Positions 7,760 through 17,607 of a stretch of 18,304 nt of DNA are shown here, one piece after another (within the stretch, counting starts at the first letter, position 1; each line of letters starts with the position of its first letter). Both the position numbers and the translations under genes were made by a program. Under the pieces are notes generated by a model. The model had not been told where the DNA came from. It worked only from the letters and a program-made list of their open reading frames with translations, and ran no database searches. The DNA comes from a virus (taxonomy: Duplodnaviria; Heunggongvirae; Uroviricota; Caudoviricetes), in the IMG/VR virus record IMGVR_UViG_2874933748_000006; one strand, 5' to 3'.

Positions 7760-9151
7760 ATGGACTTACCTTCTTTACCTTCTCTTTCTTCACTCTTTTC
7801 TGCATCTTCAGGTATCAATTGGCGCGATAATCTTTACGACGCTTCATTTCGTGGCGTTCCGTTTTCGGTGGAGAGCGACGAGGGTTCGTTCGGACGCCGC
7901 GTTCAGGTCCATGAATACCCAAACCGTGACAAACCGTACACGGAAGATCTCGGGCGTGCCACGCGACGGCTGACGATTAATGCGTATCTCGTTGGTGATG
8001 ATTACGCAGAGCAGCGCGACAGGCTGATTACAGCGATTGAAACCGCCGGGCCGGGGACGCTGATCCATCCGCAGTTCGGTGAAATGCAGGGCTGTATTGA
8101 CGGGCAGGTGACCGTTTCTCACTCCGGCACTGAAGGCCGTATGTGCCGGGTTTCATTTCAGTTTGTTGAGAGCGGGGAACTGTCATTTCCGGTCGCCGGA
8201 GCTGCAACCGCCAGAAAACTGGAGGAGTCGTCCGTATTCCTGGATGAGTTGATTGAAGACATGTTCGGCGATTTTGATCTCGCGGGAATACCGGACTTTA
8301 TTCAGAACGATGTTATTGCCCGGACGACCGATATGCTGGGAACCGTTCAGACAGCTTTCAAAATGGTTAATTCGGCTGTTTCTGCCGGAGCGAGACTACT
8401 GCAGGGCGATTTATCCGTCATTCTGATGCCGCCGTCGGTTGCCAGTGATTTTGTGCATACGTTGCAGGATACCTGGCGGGCCGGAACCCGGCTGGTGGAT
8501 AACACACAGGATCTGGTGCAGTCCATAACGACAATGTCCGGCATTACGCTGGACCCAGGACTGGCACCGCGTGCGGTGTGGCCCACAGATTCCGCATCGG
8601 TTATCAGGCAAAAACAGCAGACAAACCTTGTGGCTGCTGTCATCCGGACGACGGCAATCAGCGAAGCCACAAGGGCGGTCACTTCACTGCCACAACCCGG
8701 AAGCCTGGTGAAAAATCAGCAGGCGGTTGTGGCTGTTGGTGGTTCCACTGAACGTCAGTCCGATATTATTCACGTTTCTCATCCGGCACTTGACAGCGTG
8801 GCAGCCAGCACAGGACAGGATGAGAGAGCGCAACCACCCACGCGGGAAAATCTCACCATCATACGCAAATCGCTGAACGCGGCGATTGAACAGGAGCTCA
8901 GGCGTACGGCGGATGACAGGCTGTTTTTTCAGCTGACGTCATTACGTACAGAACTGAACCGGGATATTCAGGCGCGTCTGGTTCAGACGGAGGAAACCGC
9001 AGAGCGAACGCCAGCGGAAGTTCTGCCTGCGCTTGTTCTGGCTGCGTCATGGTACGACGATGCGTCCCGTGAAACTGATATCCTGGATCGAAATGCCATC
9101 TCTCATCCGGGCTTTGTTCCGGTCAGGGCATTAAGGGTACCCGTCAGATGA
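7760..9151 (+). CDS. Phage DNA circulation protein (Mu gpN-like)
   Basis: ATG at 7760 preceded by GGAG. The N-terminal region (FRGVPFSVESDEGSFGRRVQVHEYPNRDKPYTEDLGRATRRLTINAYLVGDDY) matches the DNA circularisation protein family. Position after the tape measure fits. Confidence 0.8.
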   Translation: MDLPSLPSLSSLFSASSGINWRDNLYDASFRGVPFSVESDEGSFGRRVQVHEYPNRDKPYTEDLGRATRRLTINAYLVGDDYAEQRDRLITAIETAGPGTLIHPQFGEMQGCIDGQVTVSHSGTEGRMCRVSFQFVESGELSFPVAGAATARKLEESSVFLDELIEDMFGDFDLAGIPDFIQNDVIARTTDMLGTVQTAFKMVNSAVSAGARLLQGDLSVILMPPSVASDFVHTLQDTWRAGTRLVDNTQDLVQSITTMSGITLDPGLAPRAVWPTDSASVIRQKQQTNLVAAVIRTTAISEATRAVTSLPQPGSLVKNQQAVVAVGGSTERQSDIIHVSHPALDSVAASTGQDERAQPPTRENLTIIRKSLNAAIEQELRRTADDRLFFQLTSLRTELNRDIQARLVQTEETAERTPAEVLPALVLAASWYDDASRETDILDRNAISHPGFVPVRALRVPVR

Positions 9152-10236
9152 ATGATACCGTTTTACTTCGGGTTTCCGGTCGCGAATGGGGCGGCTGGAC
9201 ATCCGTCCGTATCAGTGCGGGCATTAACCGTATTGCCCGGGATTTTAATGTTGCCATTACCACCCGCTGGCCCGGAAGCCGGGATTATCAACCCCGGATA
9301 AAAAATGGTGAGCTGGTTGAAGTGCTTATCGGGGATGAGCCTGTGCTCACCGGATATGTGGAGGCACTACCGCTTCGTTATGACGCCAGCAGCGTCAGCA
9401 TGGGAATTGTCGGGCGAAGCAAAACAGCCGATCTGGTTGACTGCTCTGCTTTGCCACTCCAGCAGAGCGGAAAAAACCTGCTCAGAATAGTCAGTGAACT
9501 GGCTGCGCCATTTGGCATCACCGTTGTTGATGCTGGCGTGCCGCAGACAGCGGTGATTGATGCCCAGCCGGAACACGGCGAAACCGTTGCCGATTGTCTT
9601 AACCGGTTACTGGGGCAGGTTCAGACGCTGGCTTATGACGATGAATGCGGGCGACTGGTTCTGGGAAAACCCGGAACAGGTAAAGCGGCGACGGCGCTGG
9701 TGCTGGTGCTGGTGCTGGGAGAGAATATTCTTTCCTGTGACACGGAAAGAAGCATCAGAGAGCGGTTTTCTGAATATCAGGTCAGTGGGCAGCGCCCGGG
9801 CAACGACGATGATTTTGGTGAGGCCACCATTGCCGCAATACGTCAGACCATTCAGGACAGTGGCGTGACCCGTTATCGCCCTTTGTTGATTCAGCAGTCA
9901 GGCACAGCAACGACAGCAACCTGTAAGGCCCGTTGTGAATTTGAAGCGCGCCAACGGGCTGCGCTTACCCGTGAGACAACATATACGGTTCAGGGCTGGC
10001 GGCAGGGCAGTGGCGCGTTATGGCGTCCGGGGTTATCTGTCATCGTTTTCGACCCGCTGAATAATTTTGATAATGATGAACTGGTGATCGCAGAAGTTAC
10101 CTATAACCAGGACGACCGGGGCACGACGACTGAATTACGGGTTGGCCCGGCAGATGCTTATCTCCCCGAGCCTGTTACCGCCAGGAAGAAAAAAATGTTG
10201 AGGAGGATTTCTGATGAACGGGTTTTCTCTTCGTAA
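9148..10236 (+). CDS. Mu gpP-like tail/baseplate hub protein
   Basis: A 362-aa ORF whose start overlaps the previous stop (ATGA), in the gene-P position between the N-like gene and the baseplate V-like gene. Confidence 0.7.
   Translation: MNDTVLLRVSGREWGGWTSVRISAGINRIARDFNVAITTRWPGSRDYQPRIKNGELVEVLIGDEPVLTGYVEALPLRYDASSVSMGIVGRSKTADLVDCSALPLQQSGKNLLRIVSELAAPFGITVVDAGVPQTAVIDAQPEHGETVADCLNRLLGQVQTLAYDDECGRLVLGKPGTGKAATALVLVLVLGENILSCDTERSIRERFSEYQVSGQRPGNDDDFGEATIAAIRQTIQDSGVTRYRPLLIQQSGTATTATCKARCEFEARQRAALTRETTYTVQGWRQGSGALWRPGLSVIVFDPLNNFDNDELVIAEVTYNQDDRGTTTELRVGPADAYLPEPVTARKKKMLRRISDERVFSS
9696..9718. repeat. In-frame hexanucleotide tandem repeat (GCTGGT)x3 plus GCTGG inside the gpP-like gene
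   Basis: Direct reading of gctggtgctggtgctggtgctgg. It encodes the LVLVLVL stretch in ATALVLVLVLGENIL. Confidence 0.9.
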
Positions 10237-10747
10237 TCTGATTTCCCGGGCTGTCATCACGGCGGTGGATTCCGCCAGAAAGTGTCAGTCTGTAGGGTTG
10301 AAAATGATAGCCGGAGATCAGAAACAACACGTTGAGCACCTTGAACCTTATGGTTTTACATCTGCCGCACAGAACGGTGCTGAGGGCGTTGCTTTATTTC
10401 CGGCGGGCGATCGTTCTCATGGTGTGGTTGTGGTCGTGGCTGACAGACGTTACCGGCTGAAAGGACTGAAACGTGGGGAAGTGGCGCTTTATGACGATCT
10501 GGGACAGTCCGTTGTCCTGACCCGTTCCGGTATTGTGGTGGACGGGGCCGGGAAGGCCATAATTTTTAAAAACGCGCCTAAAGCGCGCTTTGAAATGCCA
10601 GTCGAATCCACCGCCGATATTACTGACAATTGCGACAGTGGCGGACTCAGCATGCAGCAAATGCGGCAGGCCTACAATGCCCACAAACATACCGAAAATG
10701 GTGATGGTGGCGGGATCACTGACACGCCGGATCAACCGATGGGCTGA
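10214..10747 (+). CDS. Phage baseplate assembly protein V (Mu gp45-like)
   Basis: ATG at 10214 preceded by GAGGAGG. The motifs AVITAVDSA, VEHLEPYGFTS and ALFPAGDRSHGVVVVVADRRYRL are characteristic of the baseplate V / gp45 family. Confidence 0.8.
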   Translation: MNGFSLRNLISRAVITAVDSARKCQSVGLKMIAGDQKQHVEHLEPYGFTSAAQNGAEGVALFPAGDRSHGVVVVVADRRYRLKGLKRGEVALYDDLGQSVVLTRSGIVVDGAGKAIIFKNAPKARFEMPVESTADITDNCDSGGLSMQQMRQAYNAHKHTENGDGGGITDTPDQPMG

Positions 10748-10752
10748 AAATC

Positions 10753-11163
10753 ATGATGATTAATGTTAACGGGCGACCCGTGTCGACCGGGGCTTCGATC
10801 GACCTTCTGACGCGTGCTGTGATTATTTCGCTTTTTACATGGCGGCGTGCCGGGCGTGATGATGCACCACGGATATTTGGATGGTGGGGGGATACCTGGC
10901 CTGCGGTTCAGAATGATCGCACGGGGTCGCGTTTGTATCTGTTGCGACGCAGCAAGCTGACAAATAAAACCCCGCAGCTTGCCAGAGATTATGTCCGTGA
11001 GGCGCTGGCGTGGATGGTGGAGGATGGTGTTGCTTCCCGTCTTGATATTAACGCTGTCCGGACCGGGACAGACTCGCTGGCACTTGCCATTACCATTTAC
11101 CAGCGTGACGGCAATATTCACAACATTATTTTTGATGATATCTGGAGTGAACTGAATGGCTGA
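10753..11163 (+). CDS. Mu gp46-like baseplate protein
   Basis: A 136-aa ORF with the GWWGD and SRLYLL motifs typical of the phage GP46 family, in the expected position between V and J. Confidence 0.75.
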   Translation: MMINVNGRPVSTGASIDLLTRAVIISLFTWRRAGRDDAPRIFGWWGDTWPAVQNDRTGSRLYLLRRSKLTNKTPQLARDYVREALAWMVEDGVASRLDINAVRTGTDSLALAITIYQRDGNIHNIIFDDIWSELNG

Positions 11164-11740
11164 CAGTCAGTTTTATCGCCCCGGCCTCCCGCAACTTATT
11201 TCTATGATCCGGAGCGATTTATTAACCCGCTTTGAGCAGGATACGCTGCTTCGTCGTATGGATGCGGAAGTGTATGCCCGTGTACAGGCTGCAGCCGTAC
11301 ACACGTTGTACGGGTATATCGATTATCTTGCCAGAAATCTGTTACCGGACGTGTGTGATGAAGACTGGCTGTACCGGCACGCCAGAATCAAACGCTGCCC
11401 GCGAAAAGAAGCGGTGGCAGCCCGGGGATTTGTGCGCTGGGATGGCGTAGAGGGGACGCCGGTATTGCCAGCGGGAACGCAGATCCAGCGTGATAATCAG
11501 GTGACCTTTACCACGACGGCGACGGTGACCGCAGCCGATGGTCTTCTCCGGGTGCCTGTTGTGGCAGACGAACCGGGATCGGCGGGGAATACGGATGATG
11601 GTATTGCCATGCAACTGGGAACACCCGTCAGTGGTCTGCCGTCCACAGGGTACGCTGACACCATTACAGACGGTGAAGATATTGAAAATCTGGAAATATG
11701 GCGTGCCCGCGTTATGGAACGTTATTACTACATTCCACAG

Positions 11741-11749
11741 GGGGGCGCA
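11741..11749. repeat. IS1 target-site duplication (GGGGGCGCA), left copy
   Basis: A 9-bp direct repeat identical to 12518-12526, flanking IS1 copy 2. Confidence 0.9.
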
Positions 11750-11764
11750 GGTAATGACTCCAAC

Positions 11765-12268
11765 TTATTGATAGTGTTTTATGTTCAGATAATGCCCGAT
11801 GACTTTGTCATGCAGCTCCACCGATTTTGAGAACGACAGCGACTTCCGTCCCAGCCGTGCCAGGTGCTGCCTCAGATTCAGGTTATGCCGCTCAATTCGC
11901 TGCGTATATCGCTTGCTGATTACGTGCAGCTTTCCCTTCAGGCGGGATTCATACAGCGGCCAGCCATCCGTCATCCATATCACCACGTCAAAGGGTGACA
12001 GCAGGCTCATAAGACGCCCCAGCGTCGCCATAGTGCGTTCACCGAATACGTGCGCAACAACCGTCTTCCGGAGACTGTCATACGCGTAAAACAGCCAGCG
12101 CTGGCGCGATTTAGCCCCGACATAGCCCCACTGTTCGTCCATTTCCGCGCAGACGATGACGTCACTGCCCGGCTGTATGCGCGAGGTTACCGACTGCGGC
12201 CTGAGTTTTTTAAGTGACGTAAAATCGTGTTGAGGCCAACGCCCATAATGCGTGCAGTTGCCCGGCAT
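11765..12268 (-). CDS. insB: IS1 InsB frame (expressed as InsAB' by -1 frameshift at 12205-12211)
   Basis: An intact 167-aa ORF in the -1 frame relative to insA, overlapping its 3' end, as in canonical IS1. Confidence 0.9.
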
Positions 12269-12462
12269 CCAACGCCATTCATGGCCATATCAATGATTTT
12301 CTGGTGCGTACCGGGTTGAGAAGCGGTGTAAGTGAACTGCAGTTGCCATGTTTTACGGCAGTGAGAGCAGAGATAGCGCTGATGTCCGGCAGTGCTTTTG
12401 CCGTTACGCACCACCCCGTCAGTAGCTGAACAGGAGGGACAGCTGATAGAAACAGAAGCCAC
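12187..12462 (-). CDS. insA: IS1 InsA
   Basis: A 91-aa ORF identical in translation to insA of copy 1. Confidence 0.95.
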
Positions 12463-12517
12463 TGGAGCACCTCAAAAACACCATCATACACTAAATCAGT
12501 AAGTTGGCAGCATCACC

Positions 12518-12526
12518 GGGGGCGCA
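12518..12526. repeat. IS1 target-site duplication (GGGGGCGCA), right copy
   Basis: Identical to 11741-11749. Confidence 0.9.
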
Positions 12527-13014
12527 GACCCTGATTATGTTATCTGGGCGAAAGAAGTTCAGGGTATTAACCGTGCATGGACTTTCAGACACTGGAAAGG
12601 CACTGGAACGGTTGGCGTGATGGTGGCGACAAACGATCCGGAACGCCCGGCCCCGGATGAAAGCGTGATTAACGCAGTCAGGGACCACATCCTTCCTCTG
12701 GCACCTGTTGCCGGAAGCGGATTGTATGTATTCGGTGCCACAGAAAAAGTCATCCCGATGACGATTGCATTATCGAAAGACACACCGCAGATCAGGACTG
12801 CAATAAAAGCAGAGCTGAATGCACTGATGTTACGGGATGGTGTGCCAGAGGGGCGTATGTATCTGTCCAGAATCAGTGAGGCCATCAGTTTGTCTGCTGG
12901 TGAAGTGGCCCACCGGTTAATCGTCCCTTCATCGGATATTGACCTGGGGGAGACCGAGCTTCCGGTGCTCGGCGAGATCACCTGGCAGGCTTATGACCCG
13001 GCAAGGAGTAAATA

Positions 13015-13605
13015 ATGGATTCGTTACAGGATGATTATACAAAGCTGCTGTACGGACTGATGCCGCCGGGGCCTGCATGGTCAGATACCGACGGTGTACT
13101 TGACGGTCTGGCACCATCGCTTGTGCGTGTTCACCAGCGGGCTGATGAACTGGTGATTGAAATCGATCCCGGTCAGTCCACAGAGCTGATTGAACGTTAT
13201 GAAGAATTGTATGGTTTACCTGATTCCTGTTCCCCTGTCGGAACCCAGACATTACGCCAGCGTCAGCAACGTCTTGAAGCAAAAGCCAATGTGGCTGGTG
13301 GCATAAATGAGCAGTTCTTCCTGGATCAGCTTGAGGCGCTGGGATATACCGGCGTAACGATCGAACAGTTCCAGCACTTGGATGCAAGCCCCGATCCGGA
13401 ATGGGGAGATCGCTGGCGTTATTTCTGGCGTGTGACGTTGCCGATGGATGCCGGTGCTCAGTGGCAGACATGCACGGACGCCTGCAACACACCGATCCGG
13501 ACGTGGGGGGATACGGTTGCGGAGTGCGTGATTAATAAATTATGTCCGTCACACACCGTCGTTTTATTTTCCTATCCAGATGAGGATGAAGATGCACAGG
13601 ATTGA
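13015..13605 (+). CDS. Mu gp48-like tail protein (DUF2313 / P2 gpI-like)
   Basis: A 196-aa ORF whose start overlaps the J stop (TAATG). The N-terminal LLYGLMPPGPAW motif and position after J fit the gp48 family. Confidence 0.7.
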   Translation: MDSLQDDYTKLLYGLMPPGPAWSDTDGVLDGLAPSLVRVHQRADELVIEIDPGQSTELIERYEELYGLPDSCSPVGTQTLRQRQQRLEAKANVAGGINEQFFLDQLEALGYTGVTIEQFQHLDASPDPEWGDRWRYFWRVTLPMDAGAQWQTCTDACNTPIRTWGDTVAECVINKLCPSHTVVLFSYPDEDEDAQD

Positions 13606-14632
13606 TACGCTGACTGCGGTAAAAGATAAGTTTGGTCCGGGTAAGAACGGATTTACTGACGGAAATCTTCGCACAGGACGTCTTGCTACCTGGCTGAACA
13701 GTGCCATGTGGAATGCCATTCAGGAGGAAATCTGTGGTGTCATTGAGAAGGCCGGGATAGAACTGAATAAAGAAGAACACGACCAGCTATATAAGGCTAT
13801 ATTATTGCTGGTGGGCGGTGCAATTAACGAAGAGGCATTGCTGATAAAAAATAACCTTTCGGATGTGGAAGACAGGGATGAGGCTGTTGAAAACCTCGGA
13901 TTAAAACCCACGGTGGATAAGGCAAAAAATGCCGTTCAGCGTGATGGCGACACCATGACCGGAGAGCTGAAAATCCGTGGTGTTAATGCGCTGAGGATTT
14001 TCAACGAAGCTTTTGGCCTGATTTTTCGTCGTTCGGAAGAGTGCCTGCACCTTATTCCCACCAGTGAAGGTCAGGGGGAAAATGGCGATATTGGTCCCCT
14101 GCGCCCGTTCACCATTAATCTGCGGACGGGTGAAATATCCATGTCGCATAAAGTGTCTGTTGGCGGTGGTTCGCAGGTCAATGGTGCGCTGGGTATCGGC
14201 GTTCAGAACGCCCTGGGGGGGAATTCAATTGTTCTTGGTGATAATGACACCGGATTCAAACAGAATGGTGATGGCCTGCTGGATGTTTATGCCAATAGCG
14301 TGCATGTGTTGCGTTTTCAGAGTGGCAGTATCCAGAGTAATAAAGCTGTAAACGTTACAGGACGGGTAACACCGTCAGACTACGGAAACTTTGATGCCCG
14401 TTACCAGCAGCGAAATGGTGGCGTGCAGGATGTGCGGTATGGTTATGAAATGTATTACACCCCCGGCAGTAACACCGTTTCGTGGACATTTCGCTCACCT
14501 TCGGGACACGGGCTGTCAGGGATATCGATATCGGATACCGGCCGTAACTCAGCGGATAACGTCAACGGCGTGTATTACCGACCGCTGCAAAAACTGATTA
14601 ATGGCACCTGGTATAACGTAGCGAGTATTTAA
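13592..14632 (+). CDS. Tail fibre protein with a P2 gpH-like C-terminal domain
   Basis: The motifs AVQRDGDTMTGEL, NALGGNSIVLGDNDTGFKQNGDGLLDVYANS and the C-terminal YRPLQKLINGTWYNVASI resemble the C-terminal part of P2 H-type tail fibres as I recall them. Start chosen at ATG 13592 (GAGGA upstream); in-frame ATGs also exist at 13580 and 13586. Confidence 0.75.
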   Translation: MHRIDTLTAVKDKFGPGKNGFTDGNLRTGRLATWLNSAMWNAIQEEICGVIEKAGIELNKEEHDQLYKAILLLVGGAINEEALLIKNNLSDVEDRDEAVENLGLKPTVDKAKNAVQRDGDTMTGELKIRGVNALRIFNEAFGLIFRRSEECLHLIPTSEGQGENGDIGPLRPFTINLRTGEISMSHKVSVGGGSQVNGALGIGVQNALGGNSIVLGDNDTGFKQNGDGLLDVYANSVHVLRFQSGSIQSNKAVNVTGRVTPSDYGNFDARYQQRNGGVQDVRYGYEMYYTPGSNTVSWTFRSPSGHGLSGISISDTGRNSADNVNGVYYRPLQKLINGTWYNVASI

Positions 14633-14634
14633 CA

Positions 14635-15180
14635 ATGTTGCATTTAAAAAATATTACGGCAGGTAATCCGAAAACCGCGGAATAATATCAGCTGACAAAA
14701 CAGTATGATGTCACCTGGCTTTTTTCGGAAGACGGCAAAAACTGGTATGAAGAACAGAAGAACTTTGCCAGTGACACCATAAAAATGGTTTACACCGGAG
14801 ACGGGCGCGTGGTGTGGGTCGGTAAGGATGTGACAGGCATTGAACCCCGTAACGCCAGTGTTATTGAAGTTCCTGATATTACCGCCAACCGCCGCATTAC
14901 CGCGCCGGGTTACTGGTTTTACCGCAATGATGAATTTGTCTTTGACTACAGACTCAAAGCGGAAGATGAGCGTGATGCCCTTCTGGCTCAGGTCAGTGCC
15001 CGGACAGGGGAATGGGAAGAAGACCTGCTGCTGGGGCTAATCAGCGACGAAGACCGGGAAAAACTGAAAGCGTACCGTATTTACGCGAAATCGCTGCAGG
15101 CGATGGATTTCAGCACCATCACTGATAAATCCTCATATAACGCCATTGAATGGTCCGTCTCTCCGGAAGGTTCTTCCTGA
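14635..15180 (+). pseudogene. Tail fibre assembly protein (Tfa) with an in-frame premature TAA at 14683-14685
   Basis: ATG at 14635 gives MLHLKNITAGNPKTAE, then TAA, then the frame continues YQLTKQYDVTWLFSEDGKNWYEEQ... to a C-terminus with the Tfa signature (KAYRIYAKSLQAMDFS...IEWSVSPE). The first in-frame ATG after the stop is at 14785. Confidence 0.7.
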
Positions 15181-15203
15181 TTTAATTTATCGCGAGAAAA
15201 ACT

Positions 15204-16472
15204 ATGTCTGTAGTGATATCAGGTGCGCTGACTGATGGCGCAGGCATCCCCATGTCCGGATGCCAGATTATTCTGAAATCCCGTGTAAACACCTCAGAAG
15301 TGGTGATGCGTACCAGGGCTGATGTAGTGACCGGAAATAACGGTGAATATTCGTTTGAGGCACAGGTCGGAAAATATTGCGTGTATCTGAAACGGGACTG
15401 GCGCGACGAGTACTGTGTTGGCGACATTGCTGTATACGACGACTCAAAGCCCGGCACGCTGAATGACTTTCTGATTGCTCCTGATGAGGGCGACCTGAAA
15501 CCGGATGTCGTCAAACGCTTTGAGGAAATGGTGGCGCAGGCGCAGCAGAGCGCCGGGGCCGCAGCCGGAAACGCACAGCAGACGGCGCAGGATGTGGCGG
15601 CAGCCGCAGGTTATGCCCGCGCAGCAGAGCAGGCCAAAAATGACATTGATGCTGCGCTGACCGGCACTCTGAAAACGGCTAACCATCTGTCTGAAATCGC
15701 AGCAGCAGGCGAAAAGGCACAACAGAAGTCCCGGGATAATCTGGGGCTGAAAAGTGCGGCCACGATGGAAGCACAGAGCGACATTTACGACCGGACAAAA
15801 GGCCGTCTGGCGATACCCGGCGCATTCGGCTTTGGGTGTGCTTTTCTGCCTGAAGATGTTATCCGTTTTGACACTAAGAGTGATTTCCTGGCCTGGGTAA
15901 GGAATGCGCTGCCAGGTGAATATTCCGTTGCTGGCCCCTACGACATCATCATACCCGACACACGGTTTGAAGGGGTGCTCAGCATCCGGTGGACTGATGC
16001 ACGCCCTGAGACAACAGAACCGAGGTACAGAGCCAAATCCCTTACTTTTTACGGCATTAACGGCCCCATTTATCACACCCGCTACTGCTACTGGCCCATA
16101 TCCAGACTGACTGGCTGGGTGAAAATAAATATAACCACAGAAGATATTATTTACAGAATCGTGGCGAGCTCTGTCTGCAACAGATGGGGAGACCCTGACA
16201 TTGGCGGGCTGATTATTGCTGCGTACCAGGGAGAAGCTGACGGTGATAAAGTCATCAGACTTGTCAGGGGGCAGTCATACAGAGGCTCACGACTGGGACC
16301 GGTGGGGATTTCAGTGCCCAGTACTCCCACCGGAACGTATATAGCATCCCCACAATTTTTCATTACGGGATGTTCAGAGCATTCATTACCGGGGTCATAT
16401 AGCGCCCTGTCCGGGGTGCCGGATGCTCATGTCTCTGGCGCAATGCCCGGGCTTTTTATTCGCACATCGTGA
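15204..16472 (+). CDS. Side tail fibre protein with a lambda Stf-like N-terminal domain
   Basis: The N-terminus (MSVVISGALTDGAGIPMSGCQIILKSRVNTSEVV...VYDDSKPGTLNDFL) closely matches the lambda Stf / prophage tail-fibre N-terminal domain as I recall it, followed by an Ala/Gln-rich segment and a distinct C-terminal domain. Confidence 0.75.
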   Translation: MSVVISGALTDGAGIPMSGCQIILKSRVNTSEVVMRTRADVVTGNNGEYSFEAQVGKYCVYLKRDWRDEYCVGDIAVYDDSKPGTLNDFLIAPDEGDLKPDVVKRFEEMVAQAQQSAGAAAGNAQQTAQDVAAAAGYARAAEQAKNDIDAALTGTLKTANHLSEIAAAGEKAQQKSRDNLGLKSAATMEAQSDIYDRTKGRLAIPGAFGFGCAFLPEDVIRFDTKSDFLAWVRNALPGEYSVAGPYDIIIPDTRFEGVLSIRWTDARPETTEPRYRAKSLTFYGINGPIYHTRYCYWPISRLTGWVKINITTEDIIYRIVASSVCNRWGDPDIGGLIIAAYQGEADGDKVIRLVRGQSYRGSRLGPVGISVPSTPTGTYIASPQFFITGCSEHSLPGSYSALSGVPDAHVSGAMPGLFIRTS

Positions 16473-16482
16473 GGAATGCACC

Positions 16483-17046
16483 GTGGAAATTAAAAAAATC
16501 ATTAATCCCCGTTATACCGAAAGTGGCGCAGTAGACTGTGACGTTTTTTTTGACGACAGGGACCAGGCAGTCCCCTACACAGCCACCGCTGATGATGTCG
16601 CACCGACGGGTCAGCGAATCTGGCAGGAACTGCAAAGTGGCAAATGGGGTGAGATAGCCCCATTCACTGTGACACCAGAAATGCTGGAAGCGGCCAGAGA
16701 GGCCAGACGTCAGGAAATTGAAGCATGGCGCACAGAACAGGAGGCGAAGCCGTTCACGTTTGAATGGAATGGTCGTATCTGGAATGCTGGCCCCGACTCA
16801 CTGGGCCGCCTGTCCCCGGTAGTCATGCTGGCAAAATCTGTCACAGCACAAACGCATATGGCGTGGGGTGATGCCGATAATCAGCAGGTGAAACTGTCGA
16901 TGCCGGAACTGGAAGAACTGGCGGCAGCAATGGTGCAGGCGCAGGTCGATCGCAACGATGAGATTTATCGCCGTCAGCGTGAAATGAAAGAGGAGCTGAG
17001 TGGTCTGGAGGATTTGGGAACAATTAGAGCGTTTGATGTTACGTAA
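16483..17046 (+). CDS. Putative tail fibre chaperone / assembly protein (DUF4376-like, family uncertain)
   Basis: GTG at 16483 is preceded by GAGGA (the upstream ATG at 16423 lies inside the fibre gene). The gene sits immediately downstream of the fibre gene and lacks the classical Tfa C-terminal motif. Family assignment is from memory and not verified. Confidence 0.45.
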   Translation: MEIKKIINPRYTESGAVDCDVFFDDRDQAVPYTATADDVAPTGQRIWQELQSGKWGEIAPFTVTPEMLEAAREARRQEIEAWRTEQEAKPFTFEWNGRIWNAGPDSLGRLSPVVMLAKSVTAQTHMAWGDADNQQVKLSMPELEELAAAMVQAQVDRNDEIYRRQREMKEELSGLEDLGTIRAFDVT

Positions 17047-17244: not shown

Positions 17245-17607
17245 TGGTGGAGCTGGCGGGAGTTGAACCCGCGTCCGAAATTCCTACATCCTCGGTACTA
17301 CATGCTTAGTCAGTCTTTACATTCGCTTGCCAGCTGCGGACGGACACGCCACTAACAAACTAGCCTGATTAAGTTTTAACGCTTCAACCCCAGGCAGGGC
17401 TTCCACGCGATCTCTTTTGGGTTTGACCTCTCTTGATCCCCGTCCTAAGAGCGGAGGCTAGGGAGAGAGGGCTCTAAGCAGGTTATTAAGCTGCTAAAGC
17501 GTAGTTTTCGTCGTTTGCGACTATTTTTTGCGGCTTTTTACGAGGCCAACCGCCCCTCGGCATGCACCTTGGGTTTCGCAAATCCCGTCGAATCCAGAAT
17601 CAGCCCC
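17245..17607 (-). ncRNA. ssrA: tmRNA (SsrA), 363 nt
   Basis: The reverse complement starts GGGGCTGATTCTGGATTCGACGGG and ends GGTTCAACTCCCGCCAGCTCCACCA. It contains the tag reading frame GCAAACGACGAAAACTACGCTTTAGCAGCTTAA (ANDENYALAA), matching E. coli tmRNA from memory. Confidence 0.95.

Follow-up and report, generated by a model that had tools for sequence, protein, structure and literature searches.

Three of the five insertion sequence (IS) families that have expanded in all Shigella are IS1, IS4, and IS600 (Hawkey et al. 2020, PMC7373316). In Shigella sonnei, where a chromosome holds about 300 IS sites, IS1 outnumbers every other IS (PMC7373316). The phiP27-like regions of S. sonnei are conserved among strains, and IS-laden prophages have been described, as in S. 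sonnei 75/02 and 866 (PMC5447701, PMC6128377). A damaged baseplate gene is also on record in the Salmonella prophage ST64B, where the baseplate J homologue, 77% identical in amino acids to the gene discussed here, is split into sb21 and sb22. Passages in two publications (PMC3853940; PMC7067206) give the SB21 frameshift as the reason that ST64B forms no infectious virions.

The window considered here is the whole stretch of DNA that was analyzed, 18,304 nt from IMG/VR record IMGVR_UViG_2874933748_000006. Within it, an IS1 interrupts a baseplate J gene, and it is close to certain that this came about by simple IS1 transposition into J, a routine product of IS1 expansion in Shigella. In the proposed mechanism, an IS1 that apparently is functional still would have moved once, by simple insertion between J codons 198 and 199, and would have duplicated its 9-bp target GGGGGCGCA. 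The target gene belongs to a phiP27-like myovirus prophage beside ssrA in the S. sonnei chromosome.

IS1 copy B and the interrupted baseplate J gene

The element within J, designated copy B, is 768 bp long and lies at 11750..12517 on the minus strand. It starts with GGTAATGACTCCAACTTATTGAT and finishes with the complement of GGTGATGCTGCCAACTTACTGAT, and its terminal inverted repeats (11750-11772 and 12495-12517; GGTAATGACTCCAACTTATTGAT / GGTGATGCTGCCAACTTACTGAT) match at 18 of 23 positions. The insA gene (12187..12462, minus strand) is intact and encodes 91 aa with zinc-ribbon and HTH domains (PF03811, E=1e-21; PF12759, E=5e-31). The insB' reading frame (11765..12268, minus strand) is open and matches the IS1 DDE domain over the entire profile (PF03400, E=6e-78, positions 1-131 of 131). 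Where insA and insB' overlap, an A6C motif (AAAAAAC) is found at IS positions 307-313 (12205..12211, minus strand), presumably the known site of the -1 frameshift by which IS1 makes its InsAB' transposase. Copy B and the IS1A annotated in E. coli K-12 MG1655 agree at 765 of 768 nt and differ at 3. The features that mark an element as IS1 are all present, i.e., the length, the inverted repeats, insA and insB' with the DDE domain, the A6C motif, the 9-bp duplication, and identity to the reference. Copy B is a canonical IS1 that, judged by its sequence, would still be competent.

The two copies of the target-site duplication, GGGGGCGCA, lie at 11741..11749 on the left and 12518..12526 on the right, as found both by direct reading and by a script. 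An earlier sequence-only reading of this DNA had described a perfect 9-bp duplication around a 768-bp IS1; this is what is found, and every coordinate and number given in that reading proved correct under the same two checks. The repeat stops at 9 bp, with G as the next outward base on the left and C on the right. Across both strands of the whole window, GGGGGCGCA occurs only these two times, against 0.28 occurrences expected by chance, and two occurrences are reached in 4 of 200 shuffles of the window. A chance match of 9 bases abutting both ends of the element has a probability of about 4^-9. IS1 is usually described as preferring A+T-rich targets, whereas GGGGGCGCA at the J site is G+C-rich and the surrounding 100 bp are 49% G+C.

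The insertion point falls exactly between codons 198 and 199 of a baseplate J (Mu gp47-type) gene and splits its Baseplate_J domain (residues 69-317). The 5' part of the gene, codons 1-198, lies at 11156..11749 on the plus strand, and the 3' part, codons 199-360 plus the stop, lies at 12527..13015 on the same strand without a start codon of its own. When the intact J protein of E. coli FDAARGOS_944 is compared with the window by tblastn, the 5' part covers aa 1-201 at 99%. Reading from the J start into the element gives a chimeric ORF of 224 aa (11156..11830, plus strand), made up of 198 J residues and 26 IS1-encoded residues followed by a stop. The longest ORF inside the 3' part has a GTG start and encodes 132 aa (12617..13015, plus strand); it is called as a Baseplate_J_C gene in some assemblies.

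In silico deletion of 11750..12526, which takes out IS1 and one copy of the repeat, joins 11156-11749 to 12527-13015 as a single 360-aa ORF, in agreement with the in-frame baseplate J-like protein of about 360 aa that had been predicted. The rejoined protein matches Pfam Baseplate_J over the full length of the model (PF04865, E=1.8e-54, profile 2-255 of 255) as well as phrog_6, 'baseplate wedge subunit' (E=4e-76). It also resembles, over residues 37-351, chain H of PDB entry 9ki1, 'Baseplate protein gp47' (E=4.4e-36), the closest solved structure, an entry that holds 12 gp47 chains. The neighbors of J match PF06890 (Phage_Mu_Gp45), PF07409 (GP46), and PF10076 (Phage_Mu_Gp48), and the gene order gp45, gp46, J, gp48/YmfQ, tail fibers is found also in phiP27 and in FDAARGOS_944. 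On these sequence matches, the J gene is a member of the Baseplate_J / Mu gp47-type wedge subunit family.

IS1 and one repeat add up to 777 bp, a whole number of codons (259), which nominally preserves the frame across the insertion, and nine stop codons are found in that frame from the junction to the J gene's own stop. The sequence-only reading spoke of an in-frame scar. This is right to the extent that the frame is restored on excision; such restoration follows from any clean excision and shows only that no later indel has occurred.

Two 'half-gene' families, phrog_2103 and phrog_1608, tile the rejoined J at residues 4-166 and 172-354, respectively. Split genes like sb21 and sb22 of ST64B presumably gave rise to both families, and with two such families available, automated annotation could show a broken J as two normal genes. 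A separate case is the 200-aa J protein MDM4956271.1 (P0015) on a 124-kb contig of E. coli, which diverges after about residue 182 and looks like an independent frameshift in the same gene.

Empty sites in relatives and spread in Shigella sonnei

The J gene is intact in E. coli FDAARGOS_944 (NZ_CP065613.1, locus L001), where it encodes the 360-aa protein WP_000785589.1. The gene for this protein differs from the rejoined gene at 2 nt, of which one is synonymous and the other causes R238H, the only amino acid difference. FDAARGOS_944 and the Stx2e phage phiP27 each have a single GGGGGCGCA in an otherwise identical 80-nt context. The empty site together with the duplication is direct evidence for simple transposition. 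The search for an empty site in related strains that had been proposed earlier was therefore successful, in silico, in both of these relatives. Among 5426 complete E. coli genomes there were only empty sites and no filled one. The J protein of phiP27 (P27p52, NP_543104.1) is 97.2% identical to the rejoined protein and of equal length. The repeats are identical and the rejoined ORF is in frame, as the sequence-only reading had held.

The FDAARGOS_944 prophage is of the same type and has lesions of its own. Its tail sheath gene is split by ISEc60 (L001 3491-6291), and a frameshifted ipaHe effector gene lies beside the tail-fiber end (L001 18459-20100). It is an ipaH-carrying relative at a different chromosomal site in which another tail gene was independently inactivated by an IS.

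A second IS1, copy A, lies in the window 4.4 kb upstream of copy B and is inverted relative to it (6565..7331, plus strand, 767 bp). The gene that copy A has broken is an accessory one of 160 aa (phrog_5586, function unknown) and is missing from phiP27. A 1-bp deletion in a G run of copy A (IS position ~400) shifts insB', so copy A cannot make transposase. The two copies are identical apart from this 1-bp indel and stand 4418 bp apart, and IS1 is known to build composite transposons. The pair could on these grounds be a composite transposon that brought the 4.4-kb segment along with the IS1 in J, or a product of recombination or inversion between the two IS1 copies, with no simple insertion into J. 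This is, however, extremely unlikely. Copies A and B are each flanked by a matched duplication of 9 bp, namely CGTTAAAAC (6556-6564 and 7332-7340) and GGGGGCGCA, respectively, whereas an inversion between the copies would swap the repeat halves. The outer flanks of copies A and B mismatch each other, so the single outer duplication of a composite transposon is lacking. In addition, the segment between the copies and both flanks are colinear, and in the same orientation, with phiP27 and FDAARGOS_944, both of which are without these IS1 copies, and the junctions are identical in 10 of 10 S. sonnei loci. The matched duplications and the colinearity led to the rejection of both the composite transposon and the inversion. 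Simple transposition of copy B, as the sequence-only reading had it, is what the anatomy supports, and the intact duplications and colinear flanks indicate that no local rearrangement followed.

The window is S. sonnei DNA, and its 224-aa chimeric ORF matches Q3YYR0_SHISS of S. sonnei Ss046 exactly. The interrupted gene is thus already known and has stood in public annotation from the Ss046 genome onward. Its name there misleads: Q3YYR0 is annotated as 'putative head assembly protein', likewise in several other records. The name is a misnomer, the protein being a truncated baseplate J plus 26 IS1-encoded residues, and the legacy annotation can be corrected to a baseplate J fragment fused to IS1-encoded residues.

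The chimeric ORF is recorded on 230 contigs in 226 index blocks, and the reading of its spread covered 24 of the 226 index blocks and 40 of 497 cluster members. Ten complete or near-complete S. sonnei loci (L002-L011) share at least 99.84% identity with the window, with all four IS1 junctions verbatim in every one. One of the ten is HE616528.1, presumably the 53G chromosome, to which HE616529.1 belongs as plasmid A. These loci sit on chromosomes or large contigs of 0.68-4.99 Mb that were independently assembled. From many short-read assemblies of S. sonnei come partial J proteins that break off within IS1; the contigs that carry them measure 4.4-4.6 kb. This contig size is that of the segment between the two IS1 copies (7332-11749, 4418 bp), and the longest carrying contig is in the 2-5 kb class for 186 of the 226 index blocks.

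Shigella genomes contain a great many copies of IS1, at which short-read assemblies are interrupted. A multi-copy IS1 might for this reason have been misplaced in a contig gap, with the real J gene intact. The chance of this is vanishingly small, below that of the composite transposon. Both junctions are exact in the ten independent assemblies, and the short-read contigs stop inside IS1 directly after J codon 198. A duplication that is absent from the empty site is, moreover, the signature of transposition and not of misassembly. The assembly artefact was rejected on the strength of the ten independent assemblies.

With the interruption real, its distribution in the species can be considered. 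A collection of about 15 billion proteins does not contain the exact uninterrupted J allele of S. sonnei. In the 90% cluster of intact J proteins, the members read (40 of 497) include intact ones from E. coli and E. marmotae, and the sole S. sonnei member among these 40 is a 196-aa fragment at a contig end. A usable lineage mapping of the site was sought in the supplements of Hawkey 2020 and in the paper on 15 reference strains and was not found there. Because the insertion is common to the ten loci and about 230 contigs and the uninterrupted allele is absent, the insertion is inherited and probably fixed in S. sonnei and not specific to a strain.

This bears on the earlier description of the transposition as recent. 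The word holds on an evolutionary scale, where the insertion is recent only insofar as S. sonnei is a young clone; it does not hold for an event at the level of a strain, given what the ten loci and about 230 contigs have in common. The J-IS1 junction could serve as a stable marker for S. sonnei, and it could account for the contigs of about 4.4 kb that keep recurring when genomes are assembled from short reads.

Other lesions in the phiP27-like remnant

The window is colinear with phiP27 from 2147 to about 17050, at 93-96% nucleotide identity through the first tail-fiber gene and 78-87% in the distal tail-fiber genes. It is also colinear with the FDAARGOS_944 locus at 97.6-100%. The tail module (2166..17046, plus strand) comprises genes for the sheath, tube, chaperone, tape measure, a gpN-like protein, a gp44-like hub, gp45, gp46, J, gp48/YmfQ, and two tail-fiber sets. 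The remnant adjoins ssrA, encoding tmRNA (17245-17607, minus strand), and smpB; ssrA is the only non-coding RNA found in the window by Rfam and ARAGORN scans, so that none accompanies the insertion. In one S. sonnei genome, CP044151.1 (L007, 16128 onward), similarity ends at window position 17282, within the 3' end of ssrA, and gives way to an integrase-bearing element. This points to another element having integrated at the same attachment core in ssrA.

Toward the left edge of the window, a partial IS4 (1 to ~438) is followed by a 132-aa fragment of a prohead serine protease (491..889, PF04586) and by IS600 (~887..2146). IS600 stands in the place of about 3.5 kb that in phiP27 and FDAARGOS_944 encode the protease C terminus, the major capsid protein, and the connector, neck, and tail-terminator proteins. 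The left end is an IS-associated deletion that removed head morphogenesis. Further damage is found within the tail module. The homopolymer at 10189-10195 in the hub gene is A7 here and A8 in intact relatives; the shorter run puts the final six codons of the gp44-like hub gene out of frame and adds 11 codons that extend into gp45. The called product of the hub gene varies from 350 to 362 aa among S. sonnei assemblies, and A7 may be a true polymorphism or a homopolymer sequencing error. In the tail-fiber assembly gene (14635-15180), codon 17 at 14683-14685 carries a CAA-to-TAA nonsense change that is present in 10 of 10 S. sonnei loci and absent from E. coli FDAARGOS_944. Counting the J insertion, the module carries at least five lesions, and this one is redundant with the others. 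The remaining tail genes, among them those for sheath, tube, tape measure, gpN-like protein, gp45, gp46, and gp48, are full-length and 93-100% identical to those of intact relatives, and this near identity indicates that the decay is young.

The number of lesions raises the question of what the J insertion contributed. With the anatomy unchanged, IS1 may have hit a prophage that was already dead, e.g., after the IS600-associated gene loss, and been carried along as a neutral passenger; the chance that it did is put at about even. The loss of the protease C terminus and of the capsid, connector, neck, and tail-terminator genes to IS600 fits such a sequence of events, as do the nonsense codon in the tail-fiber assembly gene and the frameshift at the end of the hub gene. 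In all ten loci the two IS1 copies, IS600, and the nonsense codon occur together, and nothing there marks the J insertion as the first. On the other side, the J insertion may just as well have come first, and the state of most tail genes shows all of the decay to be young. The J insertion is one candidate among these lesions for the hit that killed the phage.

A tailocin was also considered for this module. A dedicated tailocin locus was rejected, since a fragment of the prohead protease survives and the module is 93-96% identical in nucleotides to the complete phage phiP27. A complete functional tailocin set was rejected as well, with the tail-terminator region deleted and J, the tail-fiber assembly gene, and the hub gene damaged. 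The module is a decaying remnant of a complete phiP27-type phage and not a dedicated tailocin. Whatever label automated prophage finders give to such regions, the phiP27-like S. sonnei region seen here is a remnant with several crippling lesions.

Functional consequences and comparison with known systems

With simple transposition as the preferred reading, several consequences for the module would follow. The splitting of the Baseplate_J domain leaves the 224-aa chimeric N-terminal product and a C-terminal part that lacks a start. IS1 insertions are known to be polar, and polarity of copy B would be expected to lower expression of the downstream gp48/YmfQ and tail-fiber genes. The J function of the module would be lost. 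This loss is credible given that the family is a multi-copy structural component of the baseplate, as in the 12 gp47 chains of 9ki1, and the loss of tail function is well supported by analogy to ST64B, where disruption of the 77%-identical SB21 makes the prophage noninfectious. The insertion has been passed down in the sampled S. sonnei, in a prophage that could probably make neither heads nor tails in any case. Loss of baseplate assembly and polarity are inferred from a homologue and from the general behavior of IS1, and neutrality of the event is likewise an inference.

The sequence-only reading had concluded that the insertion abolishes baseplate assembly and that no functional tail or tailocin can be made from the module. 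The loss itself is credible by the analogies to ST64B SB21 and 9ki1. What does not stand is the attribution to one cause: with neither head nor neck genes left and with further tail genes damaged, i.e., at least five lesions in all, the absence of a tail or tailocin would not be due uniquely to the IS1 in J.

A use for the broken gene can be imagined, in which the 224-aa chimera is expressed as a dominant-negative wedge subunit against superinfecting phages of the phiP27/SfV type. If so, the interrupted J would be kept as phage defense instead of debris. The 5' J fragment is unmutated and is present in every S. sonnei genome sampled. An unmutated and universal 5' fragment is equally expected from the young age of the S. 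sonnei clone, and a defensive role is exceedingly improbable.

The closest comparisons for the gene are phiP27 and phage Mu. The J gene of phiP27 is intact, whereas that of the window is split by IS1, and the prophage around it is without stx and head genes and lies beside ssrA. The rejoined J shares with phiP27 gp47 its length, its gene order, and the full-length match to PF04865. The gp47 of phage Mu (9ki1) is a more distant relative of the window's J than is phiP27 J. For the element, copy B is like IS1A and the expanded IS1 of S. sonnei in length, in the 18 of 23 matching repeat positions, in insA, insB', A6C, and the DDE domain, and in the 9-bp duplication. It differs from IS1A by three point differences only, which amount to nothing substantial.

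ST64B offers the nearest likeness in outcome, its homologous J likewise being broken into two ORFs in a resident prophage. The lesions are of different kinds. In ST64B a revertible 1-bp frameshift is found in an otherwise complete prophage, whereas in the window a 777-bp IS1 insertion is accompanied by several further lesions, and because of these, reversion of J would not restore the phage.

The locus illustrates cleanly how IS1 duplicates its target, with an empty site available in nature; it has little significance beyond bookkeeping, and the J insertion opens no new biological question. Set against the IS-driven decay of prophages in Shigella, the window shows no difference; its IS elements (two IS1, one IS600, and one IS4) are of the types that expanded there, and all of them lie within a phiP27-like prophage region. 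It is an instance of the phenomenon. In element, target, mechanism, and outcome, there is no departure from known behavior.
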